Part shown: positions 4,779 to 13,068 of the stretch, piece by piece
Layout: each line of letters begins with the position of its first letter
How positions within the stretch are numbered: position 1 is the stretch's first letter
IMG/VR virus record: IMGVR_UViG_3300029955_000001
Source of the DNA: a virus
Taxonomy: Duplodnaviria; Caudoviricetes
Strand: one strand, 5' to 3'
DNA: 64,000 nucleotides
Notes under the pieces: model-generated
Databases searched by the model: none
Told to the model about the DNA's origin: nothing
Seen by the model: only the letters and a program-made list of their open reading frames with translations
Made by a program: the position numbers and the translations under genes

Positions 4779-5153
4779 TTAATTTGGATTGAGTAGATAT
4801 TCTCTTATTTTTTTCTTTGCTATTTCAACATCAGCTTTATATCCAATGCCTTGACAATGTGAAGATATTTCATTATGTAATTCTTCTATTAAAGCCATTG
4901 TCTTATCAGCTTGTTCAATAGTCAAACCTTTAGCTGGATATTTTGGATCAACTACCTTCACTGGTAAAATATCATACTTAAAACCATTCCAATGATACTC
5001 GAGTTTAGTATGACTGGAATAATACGTTACTCCAGCAGTACCTATTTTTGGAAAATGTGATTCATTTTCATATTCTCGTTTAAGAGGTAAAGACAGATAT
5101 ACTTCTTTTTTATTATAAGCAGGATAAGTAACAGTCATTATGTCAATATTCAT
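4779..5153 (-). CDS. Hypothetical protein
   Basis: 124-aa ORF, TAATG-coupled to the upstream gene. Confidence 0.65.
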   Translation of the reverse strand: MNIDIMTVTYPAYNKKEVYLSLPLKREYENESHFPKIGTAGVTYYSSHTKLEYHWNGFKYDILPVKVVDPKYPAKGLTIEQADKTMALIEELHNEISSHCQGIGYKADVEIAKKKIREYLLNPN

Positions 5154-5428
5154 TAACGTTCCTTTATTTCTTTTAAGGTATTCGTTGTCGAGTCAAATTT
5201 AAATAGAGATATTTTAGATGTCTCATTGTCAACAATCGATAACGTAATATCATCCGATAGTGGGATTGGTTGATTTATGCACTTTTCTCTCTCTTGTTTA
5301 CCTTTTGTTATTTTAGCATTAAGATTAACCAAAGCATAAAACAAAACAGCAATAAACGCACCGCCAATAGCGTATCCAATTAATAGAAAAGTAATTAACC
5401 ACTCAGAAACTGTTAAGGGAATGTTCAT
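5153..5428 (-). CDS. Small single-pass membrane protein
   Basis: Hydrophobic stretch WLITFLLIGYAIGGAFIAVLFYALV. Confidence 0.65.
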   Translation of the reverse strand: MNIPLTVSEWLITFLLIGYAIGGAFIAVLFYALVNLNAKITKGKQEREKCINQPIPLSDDITLSIVDNETSKISLFKFDSTTNTLKEIKER

Positions 5429-5478
5429 TTGGTTTTATGCGAGATACCTCGCTATTTATTGCGAGGAGGGATAGCATA

Positions 5479-5504
5479 TAGGGTAATGTAGTCACATTAC
5501 CCTA
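5479..5504 (-). terminator. Hairpin (11-bp stem) downstream of the IscB-derived gene
   Basis: TAGGGTAATGT-agtc-ACATTACCCTA; minus-strand 3' tail ATATGCT. Confidence 0.6.
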
Positions 5505-5539
5505 CCCTCACGCATTCCTTTCTATAGTAGCTATCATGA

Positions 5540-6473
5540 TTATATTGGTACAGCTATGTTTTTACCACCAGACATAGATAGATAGTGATATAGTTGTAAA
5601 CAGTAAGAATAACCATCATTCTTTTGAATGAGTGCACACTGGTTCCATTTAATAGATATTGGTTTATCATTAAATATTACTGAAAAATACCCACTAGCTC
5701 TAATCACTACTCTACTAAAAATAGCTTTATTAACATAGCCTAATGTCGTTTTAATTTCTCTAGTAAACTTTACTAAATCACCAGTAGCAAATCAAAAGAC
5801 ACGTTTAGACATTTTACTAATAGTACGAGGGAATCCGTATTGATCTGGTTTAGTACGCTGGTATTGTCCTCGTCCTGTACATTTAATTTCTAGATGTGGT
5901 CTACGCCAGTTATTTACTACTAAAACATTACCGACACAAGCAGCATCTAAGGCATGGGTCTTAGGTATATTAAAATTATGTCGATTATATTTAGTTTGAC
6001 TACCAGATCCTGTATTCACTGGTAATCCAGTATTTATACATTCTAAATATAATTGATTACGCGTAGCATTGACAGCAGCAGCATCGCGTAGTGGTTTTTG
6101 AGCAGTAGATAATATCTTTTTCAGTAATTCAGGCTTATCTTTTAAAAACACTTCTATCAGTATATTACTTTTCTTTTGATTACAATCATGACAGGCTATG
6201 CCTAAATTGGATACACGATTAGATCCACCTCGACTACGCGCTACTATATGCTCAATTTCTAATGGTCGATCATTTTCTGTCTTACAATACATACATTGAT
6301 GATCGTATTTCTCTAGTAGATATTCTTTTACGTCGTAATTAAACAATGTACCCTGTTGATATTCAATACCTGTAATCTCTGGTTTTACTAACTTTTGCAT
6401 ATCAAATTTGACTCTCTCGATAGCTAACCATGATAATTGGAGGGTATTCAAATGGTGAGTTATAAATAGCCAT
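5540..6473 (-). pseudogene. iscB: N-terminally truncated IscB (IS200/IS605 OMEGA nuclease) derivative: RuvC-II, HNH, RuvC-III and C-terminal domain; one frameshift and one in-frame TGA
   Basis: [91 protein letters not shown]; reading through TGA 5792-5794 gives FATGDLVK..RVVIRASG..QKNDGYSY; SD + ATG at 6473 is one base out of frame. Confidence 0.85.
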
Positions 6474-6506
6474 TTACTCTTCCTTTATTTTAATATATTT
6501 TTATTA

Positions 6507-6764
6507 TTACGTTTGGACAGACACGTTCTCAAATGGGAATGTATCTTTCGTTGGATTTTTAATATAATCAAGTAAGTTTGCGCGCGCAATATTTCGCAAT
6601 ACTTTTAAGCTAGCTGAATCTCTGCTTAAATAATATTCCAAGTATGCTTTAATGGTTTCATCTAACAAATGCTCAACTTTTGGCATTTGTTCTTTACTTA
6701 AACCTTCACGTTGTTCTTCGTCCATCCATTCAGCAAATGTTTTATCAACAAGGTTATGCAACAC
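6507..6764 (-). CDS. Hypothetical protein
   Basis: 85-aa ORF between the nucleotidyltransferase and the IscB derivative. Confidence 0.55.
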   Translation of the reverse strand: MLHNLVDKTFAEWMDEEQREGLSKEQMPKVEHLLDETIKAYLEYYLSRDSASLKVLRNIARANLLDYIKNPTKDTFPFENVSVQT

Positions 6765-6782
6765 GCTATCATCGATGCTCGT

Positions 6783-7835
6783 TTATTTTCCTTTGTCCGC
6801 TTCCCATAAATACTTGCAGTCAGTAATAAACTTCTCAATATGTTCTTGAGTTGTTTGTTCTTGAATAATCCAGTCTGTAAAACTAAATCCTACAGGGGAT
6901 CGAGATTTGCAAAACTCCATGAACTGTCCTAGTTCTTTTCCAACAAAACCAGAAATAGAACCAATAATAAATCCATTCCATTTTGTTTTAATTACTTTTT
7001 GTTGTTTGTGTTTAGCATACTCTAAAGTAAGCTGTTCAGCAAAACCAGGAAATATAGCTGGATTAGTAGCGCATAATAACCAGTAGTTTTTCTCTTCTTC
7101 TCGTTTAACAGATACCTTATCTTGGACATACGCAGACCACTTGTACTTGTCAAGTTCTGGTTTATCTTCTATCCATTTCAGAAACGCTGTATAAGTAGGA
7201 CGTTTAATATCACGAATACGACTAATGTGATTTCTATTATCAAGTTTAAATATCTGACGATGGAAATATGGACTAGAAGCAGCATACTCAAAGACATCTT
7301 CTAACGTTTCGAAACCCTTGATATGCCGCGAGAAATCATAACCAAGGAATTTAAATACAGCACTTACGTCCCTACTTACTAAAACTTCAGCATAAGCATG
7401 CGTTCCGTCTCTCAGTATTTTCCACAGTCCGTTATGCCCGTACTTAAACCCCATTTTGTGCGCTATGCGACCCATTAAATTACCCAGATCATTAAATGCA
7501 AAATATACTTGGGCAAAGAAGAAATCTATCCTGGGCGCTTTGATTAAATCAATTTGCATTCCACGATAGTCAAATGACACTACATCATTATTTAATAAGT
7601 CTTGTGGTTTAAATACAGCACGAATTATGTCTATCCAATTAGGTGGAAGATTATCTGATTCAATAAGAATGTCAGCATCCCCAAATGATTCTTTTGATGA
7701 GTATGCTTCAATTGGATTAGCTAGGCATGTTGGAAAAGCATCGTGCAACTTACTTAAAACGTCACCGACAATCGCAAAATATTCTGTAGTTGTCTTCCTT
7801 GTCACACCTACATGTTTCATCGCGTTACCGCCCAT
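6783..7835 (-). CDS. Pol-beta superfamily nucleotidyltransferase
   Basis: MGGNA start, K-E-S-F-G-D-A-D-I-L (G-D-x-D) motif, third acidic residue in QIDLI, then F-A-F-N-D-L-G-N-L-M-G-R. Confidence 0.8.
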   Translation of the reverse strand: MGGNAMKHVGVTRKTTTEYFAIVGDVLSKLHDAFPTCLANPIEAYSSKESFGDADILIESDNLPPNWIDIIRAVFKPQDLLNNDVVSFDYRGMQIDLIKAPRIDFFFAQVYFAFNDLGNLMGRIAHKMGFKYGHNGLWKILRDGTHAYAEVLVSRDVSAVFKFLGYDFSRHIKGFETLEDVFEYAASSPYFHRQIFKLDNRNHISRIRDIKRPTYTAFLKWIEDKPELDKYKWSAYVQDKVSVKREEEKNYWLLCATNPAIFPGFAEQLTLEYAKHKQQKVIKTKWNGFIIGSISGFVGKELGQFMEFCKSRSPVGFSFTDWIIQEQTTQEHIEKFITDCKYLWEADKGK

Positions 7836-7863
7836 GTTATTTCTCCTTTTATTTTTAACGGAA

Positions 7864-7895
7864 TAAAATGGAAGAACTTTCGTTCTTCCATTTTA
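7864..7895 (-). terminator. Intrinsic terminator (14-bp stem, GAAA loop on the minus strand)
   Basis: TAAAATGGAAGAAC-tttc-GTTCTTCCATTTTA. Confidence 0.75.
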
Positions 7896-7898
7896 TAA

Positions 7899-8432
7899 TT
7901 ACTTTTCTGAATCGCCAAACAATAATTTCTGAGGAATGCTTTTCGTTACGACAGTAAAGTTTTCTTCATCATCAGATGTATAAGCAAGATGAATAATACG
8001 ATCGAAAACATCTGCGTCCCATATACAGTTCTTCATTGGAGCTACACACGGATTACCACCCAAAACATCAATCAATTCTGGGATCTTGCCGTGGTGCCAA
8101 CAAATCGCCACTACTTTTCCTTTATACTTCTTTTTACTAAGTAGACGTTTAGCTAATACACTAAAATCTTCATCAGACCATTTAGTTTCTACTTTAATCT
8201 TAACAGCATCAGCAAATGGCGTAATTGTTTCGATAGGGCGCACACTACCTTTTGATTTTTTAGTGGCTATAACGTGATGCACTTTATGAGAGAATGGTTT
8301 ATATAGCCCTAAGCCTACTGCACGAGTATGCCCGCGTACAGAAAGATTAGGACCGTCGTTAGGTCCATCAACATGCGATTCGCCTGGTTTCTCAGCATGT
8401 CGCACAATAAATATATGCGCTGGGTAAGTCAT
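7899..8432 (-). CDS. Histidine phosphatase superfamily protein (SixA/PGM-like)
   Basis: IFIVRHAEK (RHG-type motif), LSVRGHTRA, RPIETITP, VAICWHHGKIPEL. Confidence 0.85.
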   Translation of the reverse strand: MTYPAHIFIVRHAEKPGESHVDGPNDGPNLSVRGHTRAVGLGLYKPFSHKVHHVIATKKSKGSVRPIETITPFADAVKIKVETKWSDEDFSVLAKRLLSKKKYKGKVVAICWHHGKIPELIDVLGGNPCVAPMKNCIWDADVFDRIIHLAYTSDDEENFTVVTKSIPQKLLFGDSEK

Positions 8433-8485
8433 GTTTAAATTCCTCGTTCAGTGAACACATAGCATTACTGTTGTGTATTTTAAAA

Positions 8486-9019
8486 CTATGTTAATAATCG
8501 TTCTCGGTAGTTTTGGATAGGTGATTCCGCGTCATCGACGCTGCTCCATGTAACCCCTCGTAGCGCCCTAGAGATGTTTGCCTGAGAAGTGTTGTATTTA
8601 GTTTCTAATTCAGCTAATGTCATCTCCATATCCATTTTCTTAATCCGACGCATTTCAATTACTGTCTCAGCATTTAAAACTGTCGTACTACGATTTTTAC
8701 AAGACGATTTTATTGTAGACAAACAACAGTTATTAGGACTGAAATTCTTTGTTACATCTAAACGTATAACTTTAAAAGGAACATTAATTAATTCTGGTTG
8801 GTAAGATAACTCCCTATCTACCCATTTAATGAAATTACATATTCCTTCAGGATTTGTATCTATCCAAACTTTTGCTACTGTAATCCCTTTACCACCGTAA
8901 CTAGGATAATTTTTATTCGAACTATCGTAACAACGCTGGATAAAACTAAGCCATCTAGCGTAATACTTATGTTTTTTCATACCGTGCTTAACTGCGCCGA
9001 GATGATTCATTTTGTGCAC
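8486..9019 (-). CDS. Degenerate HNH homing-endonuclease-like protein with a C-terminal HTH
   Basis: HGMKKHKYYARWLSFIQRCY..NYPSYGGKGITV..W is the typical N-terminus; the catalytic DRIDN..NCRW..N segment has decayed to IRLDV..NCCL; C-terminal LAELETKYNTSQANISRALRGVTW. Confidence 0.7.
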   Translation of the reverse strand: MHKMNHLGAVKHGMKKHKYYARWLSFIQRCYDSSNKNYPSYGGKGITVAKVWIDTNPEGICNFIKWVDRELSYQPELINVPFKVIRLDVTKNFSPNNCCLSTIKSSCKNRSTTVLNAETVIEMRRIKKMDMEMTLAELETKYNTSQANISRALRGVTWSSVDDAESPIQNYRERLLT

Positions 9020-9078
9020 TTTTTAAGAGTGAAAAAATAAAAAAATGTTAAACGGTGGTAGTTTAACATTTTTTCTAG

Positions 9079-9396
9079 TTATTCTTCGCTATCGGAAAAC
9101 GACTGTATAATAATCTCAACTTGTTCAGACAGATTTTTAACTGTCATATCGAGATTTATTTGTTCTCCATCAATTACGATACCGAACTCTTCTTCTAGTC
9201 GTTCTATAAGCGACGCTTCGTCAATATAATCCATTCCAAGGTTATCGCCCAAAACAGATTGAGAATTAACATCATCGGGCGGTGAGTTTGTTATATCGAT
9301 AATAATATTTTTTATTTTATCAAGTACAGTCATTTCGATAGCGTCTTCTATTTCACTTCTGTTCTCAACTACAATATCTAACTCTTCATCAGCCAT
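9079..9396 (-). CDS. ACP-like protein lacking the phosphopantetheine serine (LGMDYID)
   Basis: ACP pattern V.DKIK.II..LGMD-Y-ID...L.ERLEEEFGI.I...MTVK.L; codon TAT at 9226-9228. Confidence 0.8.
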   Translation of the reverse strand: MADEELDIVVENRSEIEDAIEMTVLDKIKNIIIDITNSPPDDVNSQSVLGDNLGMDYIDEASLIERLEEEFGIVIDGEQINLDMTVKNLSEQVEIIIQSFSDSEE

Positions 9397-9417
9397 TATT
9401 ACTCTCCTTTTTTTACT

Positions 9418-9873
9418 TTACGTGGCATCTTTATCAAGCGTAAGGTTAACTTGCATGCGTGGTTGACCTGCTGGGCGTTGTTGTTTTAAATCTTCAATGC
9501 AATACAAAGAGTCTGGGTCTAACATCCCCATTATGTTTGTCCGTTTGAAAGCAGGTACTTTAATCACATACCAACATAGTGGACACCATGCTAGATTTAT
9601 ACCTACTTGACTCAGACGATCTGTTACGAGTCCGTAGTATTTACGAATAACCGGTTTTTGCATTGCCTCAGTGAATTTCAGACTAATTTCTGGTCCTAAA
9701 ATGTGAGCCATAGCATCACGGTCAACTGGTATAAAATATCCATACGGATTACCAGACCCTACTACTTTTGGCGTATCGTTCCGATTGCAAATAGCAACAA
9801 TCATATCTGTTGCCTTAGTTACGCTATATGGGAACGAATGCTTTTCTTCATTGACAAAATTATACACAGTCAT
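9418..9873 (-). CDS. Hypothetical protein
   Basis: 151-aa ORF with AAGGAG SD. Confidence 0.7.
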   Translation of the reverse strand: MTVYNFVNEEKHSFPYSVTKATDMIVAICNRNDTPKVVGSGNPYGYFIPVDRDAMAHILGPEISLKFTEAMQKPVIRKYYGLVTDRLSQVGINLAWCPLCWYVIKVPAFKRTNIMGMLDPDSLYCIEDLKQQRPAGQPRMQVNLTLDKDAT

Positions 9874-9970
9874 TTGTTACTCCTTACAAGTTTAATATAA
9901 CATTAGCACTATGCGTAACATGCTAACTCTCCCTACATTCCCTCCCAGTATTAATGAGAGGGAATTCCTT

Positions 9971-10489
9971 TTAAAGAATACCGAGTTTCTTGTAGAGTGC
10001 GTATTCTTTAATTACCGGCATGAATTTCAGAATCCACTGAAAGAAAAGAAGAATTGCTAAAGAGTTTGCTCTCTTCACGCGACCTTCTTCCGTATTCGTG
10101 AAATCGAAACTACACTTACCTTTCAAATTCCCAGTGGAAATCCCTGCAATATAAAACGGAACAGGGTTAGATACGTAAGACGATTCTCCGTCTCCAGCAA
10201 AGTATAAACTATGCTCGCTAAGAATACCTGATGAGTTAGAGAAAATCTTTGGCGTAATAACACCACTTTTTATTTTTTCTTGAAGGACATAGAAAAGTTT
10301 CTGATCTTCATTGAAAGTAGAAAAGCCAACTGATTGGCTTCTAACAAAGAAATCAGCATCGATACCGTACGATTTATTGAGTGGTAACTTTGCATACGAT
10401 CCTGCATATACGGGATCATCGAATACTATTCCGTTAAACAAACAAAAATCTCTAACCTGATCGATAGCTACTGTGGGAAGGTGTTTCAT
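9971..10489 (-). CDS. Hypothetical protein
   Basis: 172-aa ORF with AAGGA SD. Confidence 0.7.
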   Translation of the reverse strand: MKHLPTVAIDQVRDFCLFNGIVFDDPVYAGSYAKLPLNKSYGIDADFFVRSQSVGFSTFNEDQKLFYVLQEKIKSGVITPKIFSNSSGILSEHSLYFAGDGESSYVSNPVPFYIAGISTGNLKGKCSFDFTNTEEGRVKRANSLAILLFFQWILKFMPVIKEYALYKKLGIL

Positions 10490-10602
10490 AATAGTCGTTC
10501 CTTTAGACTATTTTAATAAACCCGATTGCCTATGCGCTCGGATGTTAGTCGCTGAAAGCACTAACATGAATCCCTCCTCATTAGAAGAGGGCATCATCTT
10601 AA

Positions 10603-10839
10603 TTACTTTGCGTTATTAGTGATGTAATCAATAACGTCTTGCACTGTAATGAACTTTTCTGCTGCTTCGTCAGGTATTTCTAATTCAAATTCATCTTCCA
10701 AAGCCATAACAAGTTCAACAGCATCCAGCGAGTCCATACCAAGATCATCGTCGAACTTCGTAGTTGTTGTAACGTTTTGTTCTAACGAATCAAATTGATC
10801 AGAAACAATTTTCTGAATACGACTTTCAACATTTTTCAT
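10603..10839 (-). CDS. acpP: Acyl carrier protein
   Basis: DDLGMDSLDAVELVMALEDEFELEIPDEAAEKFITVQDVIDYI: canonical ACP with the intact DSL serine. Confidence 0.95.
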   Translation of the reverse strand: MKNVESRIQKIVSDQFDSLEQNVTTTTKFDDDLGMDSLDAVELVMALEDEFELEIPDEAAEKFITVQDVIDYITNNAK

Positions 10840-10856
10840 GTAATCCTCACTGAGAT

Positions 10857-11162
10857 TTAGTCTTTGTCATATATTGCGCGGTTTATGATTTTTCTCTCTT
10901 TGTAATTATCAACTGGCATAAAGTCACTAGTGACAACATAAATATTTACGTATATATTAAATGTGTTACGAGCAAAGTCACTGGCGATACTCCATGCTGC
11001 TTTTTCATCCGGAATAAGTTCTTCTCCAGCCCGACTATCCGGGAAATAGTCAGTTGTTGCTACCAATCCGTCTAGCTTTTCGAAATGAACCATAAAGCCA
11101 GGTTTAATTGGTTTTGCACGACCGCCGCTATTAATTATTTTTAACGCCTCTTCCATTTTCAT
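10857..11162 (-). CDS. Conserved phage hypothetical protein (start moved to ATG 11162)
   Basis: AAGGAGAGCGAT-ATG at 11162; GFMVHFE..DYFP..NIYVV motif. Confidence 0.7.
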   Translation of the reverse strand: MKMEEALKIINSGGRAKPIKPGFMVHFEKLDGLVATTDYFPDSRAGEELIPDEKAAWSIASDFARNTFNIYVNIYVVTSDFMPVDNYKERKIINRAIYDKD

Positions 11163-11199
11163 ATCGCTCTCCTTGAGTAACTCAGTAACTATCAAGTTA

Positions 11200-11210
11200 G
11201 TGATATATTA
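11200..11210 (-). promoter_or_regulatory. Putative phage early promoter core TAATATATCAC
   Basis: Identical to 178-188; lies between the arms of inverted repeat AACTCAGTAA/TTACTGAGTT. Confidence 0.45.
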
Positions 11211-11230
11211 CTGAGTTATTTTAGATTTAA

Positions 11231-12205
11231 TTATGCTGACATTGGAGCGTCAATTCTAGCGAGATGTTGGTAATCTTGCAATACAATATCATCAGGTTTA
11301 ATACGTGTGAATGCGCCTTTTATATCATCTAGATTTATAATTGGTTTGACATTATCAGACAATAATACTTTCGGCAATGAAAGATGTTCACGCTTTAGTA
11401 ACTCTTCAGCTTGTTCGAAATGATCCTCGTAAAGATGACAGTTTGCAGCTTGCATTGTGATTGTGCCTGGTGCAAAGCCACTTAAACGCGCCATGATTAG
11501 TAGCTGTAGAGCGGTTGTTGCTATGTTTGTCGGCGCGCCTAAAAATCCATCCATTGAACGGATTGTCATAACAAGATGTAACACTTTTGGATTTTCTAAA
11601 GCTATATAGCGATAATCCATGTGGCACGCCGGGAGTGCTTGTAAATCAATCTCAGCAGGATTCCACGCAGTGATAATCATACGGCGATCAGATGGATTCG
11701 TTAACAATGTACGCAGTACGTTTTCAAGCTGATTAATTTCACGTTCAAATAGAAATAAACCCCTGCTGGAGTCATACATAGCGACCGAGTAACCTAATTC
11801 ACTTAAACGATCAAATTCTTTTCCATCTGAACTATTAATAACACGTCGATCTTTCCACGCTGTCCATTGAACACCGTAACAACGACCGATATCATCTTCT
11901 CCCTTACGATGTGGGTTATCTAACCACGCTTTCGTTTCATTAGCGTTTTGGTTCCATAGATTACATCCCATATTACGAAAATCAACAGCATTATCGTACC
12001 CGCGAAAGAAGCTTAATAACTCTCCTTTAATGCCGTTAAAAAACAACTTACGTGTTGTTAGTAGAGGAAAGAATTCACTAACATCATATTGCAATTGATA
12101 ACCGAGCAATACGCGGCATAGCTTACCAGTGCGCTCATTAAATTGTTCGATAGGACTATTTAAAGTTGCTCTAATCATATCGTGATAGTTTTGCATGTTA
12201 CTCAT
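11231..12205 (-). CDS. thyA: Thymidylate synthase
   Basis: FFPLLTTRKL, GRCYGVQW, RRMIITAWNP, ALPACH (catalytic Cys), RSMDGFLGAPTNIA (Asn retained), HLYEDH. Confidence 0.97.
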   Translation of the reverse strand: MSNMQNYHDMIRATLNSPIEQFNERTGKLCRVLLGYQLQYDVSEFFPLLTTRKLFFNGIKGELLSFFRGYDNAVDFRNMGCNLWNQNANETKAWLDNPHRKGEDDIGRCYGVQWTAWKDRRVINSSDGKEFDRLSELGYSVAMYDSSRGLFLFEREINQLENVLRTLLTNPSDRRMIITAWNPAEIDLQALPACHMDYRYIALENPKVLHLVMTIRSMDGFLGAPTNIATTALQLLIMARLSGFAPGTITMQAANCHLYEDHFEQAEELLKREHLSLPKVLLSDNVKPIINLDDIKGAFTRIKPDDIVLQDYQHLARIDAPMSA

Positions 12206-12217
12206 AATGATTTCCTT

Positions 12218-12481
12218 TTAGTGCATGTGCGCTATGTTTGGTTTATTTAATAGGTCTACAGCGTTAGTAATTGCTTGTTTAATATCGGCTCGTTCAATAT
12301 CAACATTAAACACTATTGCCCTGTCCATAATGTTTTTTTCATAATGACGATGTTGCGCTATGAGAGCTATGTATTGTTGCTCGCGTTCGCCTGTAACACC
12401 CGTGCTTTTAATAGCTTTACAGAACTCACAATCGCAATAATTTTCTGAACTATCAATATTACTAGTTGAATCAGTTTTCAT
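12218..12481 (-). CDS. Hypothetical protein with a CDCEFC motif
   Basis: 87-aa ORF with GGAGG SD. Confidence 0.6.
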   Translation of the reverse strand: MKTDSTSNIDSSENYCDCEFCKAIKSTGVTGEREQQYIALIAQHRHYEKNIMDRAIVFNVDIERADIKQAITNAVDLLNKPNIAHMH

Positions 12482-12482
12482 A

Positions 12483-12653
12483 TTACCTCCGTTGAGTTTT
12501 TTTCATTTCCGAAACAAGTTCCTCATAGTTTTTTCTTTGAGCTTCTCGTAACTTTGCATCTCTATTTGATTTCCATACCCTATAAAGAACAATGAAGCAT
12601 GCGGATAATGATCCTAATACTAAAATCAAAATAATAATCAAAAATATACTCAC
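12483..12653 (-). CDS. Small membrane protein (56 aa)
   Basis: Manual translation from GTG: MSIFLIIILILVLGSLSACFIVLYRVWK...; AAGGA SD; stop overlaps the next SD. Confidence 0.6.
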   Translation of the reverse strand: MSIFLIIILILVLGSLSACFIVLYRVWKSNRDAKLREAQRKNYEELVSEMKKTQRR

Positions 12654-12687
12654 GCTTTATCCTTTTCAAGTTATTTAGAAATCACTA

Positions 12688-13068
12688 CTATTTTATTTTC
12701 TCAGACCTGATTACTTTAGCGCATTCATCTGACGTCATGTTGCCTTCAAATTCTTTACCTGTTGCATCGTATCCAGGTGGTCGAAAAACTGTATTCTCAC
12801 AAAGTCGTGCAGCAAACTCTAGAGTAAGATTAACTATAGCTGCGTTGTTAATACTTAGCTCTCTTGTTTTGCTTATGTAATTACGAAGAAATGTTGCCGG
12901 TGATGTCTTATCCGGCATAAGGAATTTATTTTCTAGATTATTTAGCGCTATTCTTGCATCGTTTATTTCTTTATCAGTGAAAGATACTATTGGCAGCACA
13001 TTTGCGATTGTGACAGGCTCAGGTCCGTATATCGCTTTCATTGTTTCTGGACCATATTTTTCATTCAT
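12688..13068 (-). CDS. Hypothetical protein
   Basis: 126-aa ORF. Confidence 0.65.
   Translation of the reverse strand: MNEKYGPETMKAIYGPEPVTIANVLPIVSFTDKEINDARIALNNLENKFLMPDKTSPATFLRNYISKTRELSINNAAIVNLTLEFAARLCENTVFRPPGYDATGKEFEGNMTSDECAKVIRSEKIK

Follow-up and report, generated by a model that had tools for sequence, protein, structure and literature searches.

We analysed a stretch of 64,000 nucleotides (hereafter the window) from the IMG/VR virus record IMGVR_UViG_3300029955_000001 (Duplodnaviria; Caudoviricetes), in which two open reading frames (ORFs) resemble acyl carrier proteins (ACPs): a canonical AcpP-type ACP of 78 amino acids (aa) encoded at 10603-10839 and, 1.2 kb away at 9079-9396, a 105-aa protein with a modelled ACP fold in which a tyrosine, Tyr57, replaces the serine that receives phosphopantetheine, and which we call the pseudo-ACP. 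The record belongs to a jumbo phage with a genome of about 287.6 kb that has been assembled repeatedly from peat and permafrost metagenomes and that is regarded here as phiKZ-like because the window encodes phiKZ-type internal head proteins and a homologue of gp91. The minus strand is the sole coding strand for genes in this part of the window, and all the genes and sequence signals of the window located below are read on it.

In transcription order, the region begins with a thymidylate synthase gene (11231-12205), which is followed by a 112-aa ORFan (10857-11195) lying directly upstream of the canonical ACP gene with a gap of 17 nucleotides (nt). A GC-rich hairpin (10572-10591) just 3' of the canonical ACP gene sets it apart from a 172-aa ORFan (9971-10489) situated between the two ACP genes, and a spacer of 97 nt bearing further inverted repeats then separates the 172-aa gene from a 151-aa ORFan (9418-9873). 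The latter is immediately upstream of the pseudo-ACP gene and is probably co-transcribed with it; its product has an isoelectric point (pI) of 8.3. An HNH homing-endonuclease-like gene (8486-9019) lies further downstream.

The pseudo-ACP gene has an intact frame and a good ribosome-binding site: a Shine-Dalgarno sequence, AAGGAG (9404-9409), is found 7 nt before the ATG, within the 21-nt gap that follows the 151-aa gene. After the stop codon, a perfect 14-bp inverted repeat followed by a T-run (9040-9074) forms a terminator-like hairpin that closes the unit made by the 151-aa and pseudo-ACP genes and precedes the HNH gene; the stem is AT-rich, and the strength of the terminator is therefore uncertain. 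Just past this hairpin, position 9031 is G or T in two assemblies, the only polymorphism near the pseudo-ACP gene. Three gene-calling pipelines agree on a product of 105 aa, and a shorter protein starting at Met22 is unlikely, given this agreement, the position of AAGGAG before the first ATG and the lack of any comparable site before Met22.

Tyrosine at the attachment site of an ACP-like protein

The pseudo-ACP matches the Pfam family PF00550 (PP-binding) with 28.8 bits for a gathering score of 20.8 (E 1.5e-6), PHROG 5934, labelled 'acyl carrier protein' (4.9e-7), and the sequences of 42 solved ACPs (best 5.8e-7). It also matches eleven NCBIfam ACP models, the best at 5.5e-9, every score being under the cut-off of its model; with TIGR00517 the score is 27.8 bits for a cut-off of 70.45, and the protein is thus not a member of the AcpP equivalog. 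Its residues 23-87 align without a gap with residues 2-66 of Escherichia coli ACP (1acp_A), which places Tyr57 on Ser36. Using an alignment of 66 stand-alone ACPs, we generated an AlphaFold2 (AF2) model with a mean predicted local distance difference test (pLDDT) score of 83, in which helices span residues 13-36, 57-71 and 86-103, the short helix III is not called and Tyr57 is the first residue of helix II. When this model was compared with the PDB by Foldseek, the top matches were almost all type II ACPs, with template modelling (TM) scores by target of 0.82-0.86 and root-mean-square deviations of 1.2-1.8 Å for the solved type II ACPs. The first-pass annotation of this DNA had described an ACP fold pattern at 9079-9396 together with an extra acidic N-terminal tail, and both features are borne out, the former by the PF00550 score and by the resemblance of the model to solved ACPs, the latter by the composition of residues 1-22, of which 9 are acidic and 1 is basic. 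The C-terminal tail is acidic as well (SFSDSEE), and the net charge reaches -24 in 105 residues, as against -14 for ACP.

The attachment-site region of the pseudo-ACP reads NLGMDYIDEASLIERLEEEF, with D-Y-I in place of D-S-L, and Tyr57 is encoded by a TAT codon at 9226-9228. The first-pass annotation had cautioned that TAT is one substitution away from TCT and that the change needed confirming. We found the pseudo-ACP gene, including this codon, to be letter-identical in 10 independent assemblies (JGI, ENA, Logan), and the contigs of four RNA libraries carry no variant letters at the locus; a sequencing error is thereby ruled out and the tyrosine is genuine. A shifted register in which Ser62 would serve as the attachment site was also considered and is ruled out, as the alignment has no gap between LGMD and LEEEFG and puts Ser62 on E41, in the middle of helix II. 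A tyrosine at the attachment site of an ACP is not loadable by the known chemistry of phosphopantetheinyl transferases (PPTases), and the pseudo-ACP would therefore not be a carrier in the known sense. The earlier statement that this protein cannot carry phosphopantetheine is accordingly a sound prediction, given the ungapped placement of Tyr57 on Ser36 and the known chemistry.

Across 246 related domains, the attachment-site column holds Ser in 76% and Thr in 15%, and Tyr occurs in two other domains. Six columns are at least 90% conserved in the 66 stand-alone ACPs (L53, G54, D56, S57, D59 and E68), and the pseudo-ACP keeps five of them, the serine alone being lost; the pattern resembles a targeted loss of that site rather than general decay. 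As a separate observation, the tandem carrier-like domains of large proteins, found as distant HMMER matches, read DLG(I/V)DT(V/I)KQAE, with Thr for the attachment Ser, in 37 of the 246 aligned domains.

Helix II, the recognition helix, reads DYIDEASLIERLEEEF in the pseudo-ACP and departs from the AcpP consensus DSLDxVELVMxLEEEF. Residues Ser62, Glu65 and Arg66 are the equivalents of E41, M44 and A45, positions at which ACPs have E or Q, M or G, and E or A, respectively, and each of the three residues is found in 1-3% of the 246 related domains. D56, D59 and E68-E70 are retained; they correspond to D35, D38 and E47-E49. In E. coli ACP, the M44K variant is non-functional, and M44I or V43E abolish the binding of SpoT (PMC3340395). 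Judged from the sequence, the changed equivalents of E41, M44 and A45 argue against a faithful decoy of AcpP and for a different, perhaps dedicated, partner.

The ORF at 10603-10839 had been taken for a normal ACP, a description confirmed by its match to the Pfam PP-binding family (E 6.1e-13) and by a TIGR00517 score of 97.5 bits, above the cut-off of 70.45, which makes it a member of the AcpP equivalog. Its motif, DLGMDSLDAVELVMALEDEF, reads DLGMDSLD, with Ser37 encoded by TCG at 10729-10731, and its helix II (DSLDAVELVMALEDEF) is of the consensus type. The pseudo-ACP and the canonical ACP are 32% identical over 63 residues, and the pseudo-ACP shares 24-38% identity with bacterial ACPs; as it is no closer to the ACP of its own phage than to those of bacteria, a recent tandem duplication is unlikely.

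Neighbouring genes, RNA libraries and related phages

The 151-aa and 172-aa proteins have no match in Pfam (even at E 10), PHROGs, NCBIfam, PDB sequences, a tblastn search of phages or a homologue search. The family search was also negative for the 112-aa protein, for which no relationship was found to the 151-aa protein, the other product encoded just ahead of an ACP-like gene. The neighbouring ORFs gave no match to Complex1_LYR or to any further family, even at E 10. When the pseudo-ACP was co-folded with the 151-aa protein, the score was 0.00 without controls, which counts for neither side. The 172-aa protein contains a G-S-x12-D-x-D motif (AGSYAKLPLNKSYGIDADFFV) like that of Pol-beta-type nucleotidyltransferases, and its Atlas feature scores reach 0.93 to NTP_transf_2 clusters, where scores of at least 0.9 arise by chance in 4-10%; the Atlas matches of both the 151-aa and 172-aa proteins are weak leads. 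The AF2 model of the 172-aa protein, with a pLDDT of 44, is unusable. From its motif the protein may be a minimal nucleotidyltransferase, which profile and fold searches did not confirm. Near its C-terminus, at about residues 134-168, lies a long hydrophobic helix.

Metatranscriptome contigs from libraries of four studies lie on parts of the region; they overlap the pseudo-ACP gene in two libraries and, in every one of the four, the genes for the 151-aa and 172-aa proteins. For the canonical ACP, the segment 10669-10819 has no contig coverage in the four RNA libraries, which could be due to chance at low depth and proves nothing.

Among the ORFs of at least 100 aa across the 64-kb window, Pfam searches found neither ACP-using enzymes nor a PPTase, and no third ACP-like ORF was found in the window. 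Searches with Rfam gave no match to an RNA family across 6500-13000. Downstream of the HNH gene, a 177-aa ORF (7899-8432) has near its start a sequence, ...IFIVRHAEKPGE..., that resembles the RHG/RHA motif of histidine phosphatases, and this ORF is without a match in Pfam and NCBIfam even at lax thresholds.

As a marker for related phages we used a 350-aa protein (6783-7835) that matches PHROG 24943, labelled 'DNA polymerase', and has homologues of 40-59% identity on eight jumbo-phage contigs of IMG/VR. At the loci of these eight relatives, the genes for the pseudo-ACP and the 151-aa and 172-aa proteins are absent within 10 kb of the homologue of the 350-aa protein. We then searched the whole records of five relatives with PF00550: one encodes just one ACP, which is canonical and shares 50% identity with that of the window, and the other four, among them the closest relative (272 kb), have no PP-binding gene, three of these four records being rated 100% complete. 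The first-pass annotation had proposed that the two ACP-like genes form a carrier/decoy pair. Such a pairing is not supported, since two unrelated ORFans and hairpins intervene between the genes, the two proteins are 32% identical, and the searched relatives lack an ACP or have just the canonical one.

Comparison with known ACPs and Ser-less look-alikes

The pseudo-ACP resembles the AcpP of bacterial type II fatty acid synthesis (FAS II; PF00550, TIGR00517; T. thermophilus 1X3O, E. coli 1ACP) in its helical fold, in the LGxD that precedes helix II, in an acidic helix II ending in LEEEF and in a pI near 4. Unlike AcpP, it has Tyr for Ser, a TIGR00517 score well under the cut-off, changed equivalents of E41, M44 and A45, an acidic N-terminal extension of 22 residues and an acidic C-terminal tail.

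The mACP of Plasmodium falciparum, which has Phe in place of Ser, binds Isd11 of the Isd11-Nfs1 complex without the cofactor, and its F113A variant loses both binding and function (PMC8547962). Like the pseudo-ACP, this protein has an aromatic residue at the attachment site (Phe113 for Tyr57) and is accompanied in the same genome by a canonical ACP that bears the Ser. By contrast, the Plasmodium mACP is eukaryotic and organellar and has a known LYR-motif partner, whereas no LYR-family protein was detected near the pseudo-ACP gene; the two proteins have no specific sequence relationship.

Look-alikes that lack the Ser also exist in phages: orf142 of CBA120 reads GGDDLD, with Asp at the site, a protein of Serratia phage 2050H1 reads WFDELD, with Glu, and Pseudomonas phage Lu11 has GVDDLD, again with Asp, in an ACP-like region of a hypothetical protein (NC_017972.1, 262034-262456), a case that lies outside the Ackermannviridae. 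Nine other sampled phage ACPs retain DSLD. Like the pseudo-ACP, the look-alikes of the Ackermannviridae (CBA120 and Serratia phage 2050H1) and of Lu11 are phage-encoded, stand-alone and, as predicted from their sequences, not open to phosphopantetheinylation. Where the pseudo-ACP has Tyr and a diverged helix II, they carry an acidic residue, Asp or Glu, and a helix II like that of AcpP (xLDxIELVM); furthermore, those of CBA120 and 2050H1 are conserved across the Ackermannviridae, whereas the pseudo-ACP is an ORFan. The origin of the pseudo-ACP is independent, because it is only 21% identical to CBA120 orf142. With the query used (172 records, 173 places), a second, canonical ACP was not seen beside the Ser-less look-alikes.

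Duplicated ACP genes have been described in freshwater flavobacterial jumbophages, in a 'host-interface island' (PMC13573597). According to the passages of that paper that deal with them, these phages resemble the window in that two ACP-like genes lie near each other within a set of accessory genes, and differ from it in the neighbourhood, which comprises secreted proteins, lipoproteins and a phosphohydrolase, as against genes for nucleotide metabolism and HNH genes in the window. Those passages do not mention loss of the Ser, the comparison being one of descriptions and not of sequences.

A Tyr at the attachment site is also found in a bacterial ACP-like protein of 80 aa (LFMDYVD) from the Omnitrophica metagenome-assembled genome (MAG) UBA6215 (locus 4823-6243), and is kept in a 91%-identical relative from a second MAG. 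The start of this gene overlaps the stop of a gene encoding a patatin-like phospholipase, and the protein may be a cofactor-free ACP partner of the patatin.

It had been stated in the earlier annotation that no phage system of this kind was described. This stands insofar as none has a demonstrated function, no function for any phage Ser-less ACP having been found in the literature searched, the coverage of which is incomplete; it does not stand for the genes themselves, since Ser-less look-alikes exist in the Ackermannviridae and Lu11 and duplicated jumbo-phage ACPs are reported (PMC13573597).

Possible function of the pseudo-ACP

We propose that the ORF at 9079-9396 encodes an obligately cofactor-free ACP-fold protein, most likely a small acidic protein-binding module with a specific partner, and we give this reading a probability of about 0.5. 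The tyrosine would replace the sole serine that PPTases load with 4'-phosphopantetheine, so that the protein would no longer shuttle acyl groups while retaining the ACP fold and the greater part of its acidic surface, and would then act as a very acidic binding module. The likeliest target would be one specific partner, of the phage or of the host, rather than the whole set of FAS II clients of the host, and the ring of Tyr57, exposed at the start of helix II, would probably be part of the interface, by analogy with Phe113 of the Plasmodium mACP. A specific partner is favoured because helix II is changed at three contacts, because tails have been added and because a general decoy would starve the consensus-type ACP of the phage itself. 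This reading is supported by the ACP-like sequence and modelled fold, the ungapped placement of Tyr57 on Ser36, the five retained columns and the changed helix II, by the intact ORF with its AAGGAG before the ATG and the hairpin with its T-run after the stop, by the identity of the gene in 10 assemblies and its overlap with contigs in two of the four RNA libraries, and by the precedents of the Plasmodium mACP, the Ser-less look-alikes of other phages and the Tyr-bearing bacterial protein conserved between two MAGs. A function for the pseudo-ACP, its action through binding and the nature of its partner go beyond these observations and are inferred.

Several results weigh against this proposal. 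Exhaustive searching of 1.84 billion representative proteins with HMMER yielded no orthologue, the pseudo-ACP itself being the only match below 1e-10 and the next matches, at 5e-10 and weaker, being ordinary carrier domains; in a word-index search of 5.8 billion clusters it was again its own sole match, and phage records and IMG/VR contain no relative of it. Homologues with or without the Ser were thus sought, and none turned up in these searches. The phage population is close to clonal: no more than five differences occur across 11 kb, and the pseudo-ACP gene itself does not vary. The alignment of true ACPs supplied to AF2 biases the model towards the ACP fold, and the RNA-library contigs are compatible with transcription without being proof of it, since DNA can occur in such libraries. 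Finally, no partner was identified, and the neighbouring genes are ORFans.

Two other explanations deserve consideration, both of which we regard as unlikely. The pseudo-ACP could be a decoy of the host ACP, an apo-ACP mimic that jams PlsB, AcpS, the FAS II enzymes, LpxA/D, SpoT and MukB and so shuts down lipid synthesis or signalling of the host while the canonical ACP sustains acyl transfer. An obligate apo-ACP is inherently inhibitory, and one has been reported to inhibit the growth of E. coli via sn-glycerol-3-phosphate acyltransferase (PMC4736557, in a passage citing Keating 1995); in the same way as the precedent of the Plasmodium mACP favours the model of a dedicated partner, this precedent favours that of a decoy, with which the kept equivalents of D35, D38 and E47-E49 and the net charge of -24 compared with -14 are also consistent. 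However, the equivalents of E41, M44 and A45 are Ser, Glu and Arg, in a helix in which M44K suffices to abolish the function of E. coli ACP and M44I or V43E its binding to SpoT (PMC3340395), and a decoy that blocked the common clients would starve the canonical ACP of the phage too, because the helix II of the latter is of the consensus type; nor was co-occurrence of the two genes seen in the relatives searched. It is about equally doubtful that the gene is a relic without function, derived by duplication and divergence or by capture of an ACP gene, which lost its Ser and is drifting in a variable region rich in homing endonucleases. Its restriction, as an ORFan, to one near-clonal phage population, the lack of any PP-binding gene in the nearest complete relative, its position among other ORFans and HNH genes and the single substitution between TAT and TCT would all fit such a relic, but its frame is intact over 105 codons behind a strong Shine-Dalgarno sequence, five of the six family-invariant residues are kept in a confidently modelled fold, and the 32% identity to the phage ACP implies a long divergence without stops. 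Moreover, the protein has gained tails rather than being truncated, and pieces of its gene are present in RNA libraries.

We consider two further possibilities far less probable than these. Tyrosines are known acceptors of nucleotidyl groups, as GlnE acts on a Tyr of glutamine synthetase and MntA on a Tyr of HepT, and the pseudo-ACP could conceivably be a carrier of a new type in which Tyr57 accepts a phosphodiester-linked group, for example a nucleotide transferred by the product of the adjacent 172-aa gene, should the latter encode a Pol-beta-type nucleotidyltransferase. The 172-aa gene does lie between the two ACP genes, its product has the G-S-x12-D-x-D motif and Atlas matches at 0.93 dominated by NTP_transf_2 clusters, and in the model Tyr57 would occupy the position of the ACP fold that is most exposed and faces the enzymes. 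Yet searches of Pfam, PDB, NCBIfam and PHROG with the 172-aa protein gave no match even at lax thresholds, its models are of low confidence, Atlas scores of this height arise by chance at the rate given above, a hairpin-bearing gap of 97 nt separates its gene from the 151-aa/pseudo-ACP unit, and a precedent is lacking. If Tyr57 did accept such a group, this phage would use the ACP fold as a carrier or switch with a novel chemistry. It is just as improbable that the pseudo-ACP is an acidic mimic of nucleic acid with an anti-restriction or anti-defence role, like Ocr or ArdA, for which the ACP fold would be a mere charge scaffold: a net charge of -24 in 105 residues and acidic tails at both ends would suit such a mimic, but no similarity to known DNA mimics was found, the matches in sequence and fold are all to ACPs, and charge alone does not explain the retained LGxD...D...E motif of ACPs.

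Cofactor-free ACP look-alikes are already known as a kind of protein; what is new here is a phage ACP look-alike in which the Ser is replaced by an aromatic residue, Tyr. This substitution parallels that of the Plasmodium mACP, the one studied precedent, in which the ring is part of the binding interface, and the label 'acyl carrier protein' that databases would give is probably wrong for the pseudo-ACP. The presence of a normal ACP in the same genome provides an internal control, which is convenient for experiments. ACP is among the most connected proteins of the bacterial cell, and the identity of the partner of the pseudo-ACP would tell whether proteins of this kind inhibit the lipid metabolism of the host or serve as adaptors. 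The carrier Ser has been lost, with the fold kept, several times independently in phages, in favour of Asp or Glu in the Ackermannviridae and Lu11 and of Tyr here, which suggests that cofactor-free ACP look-alikes are a recurrent phage tool.

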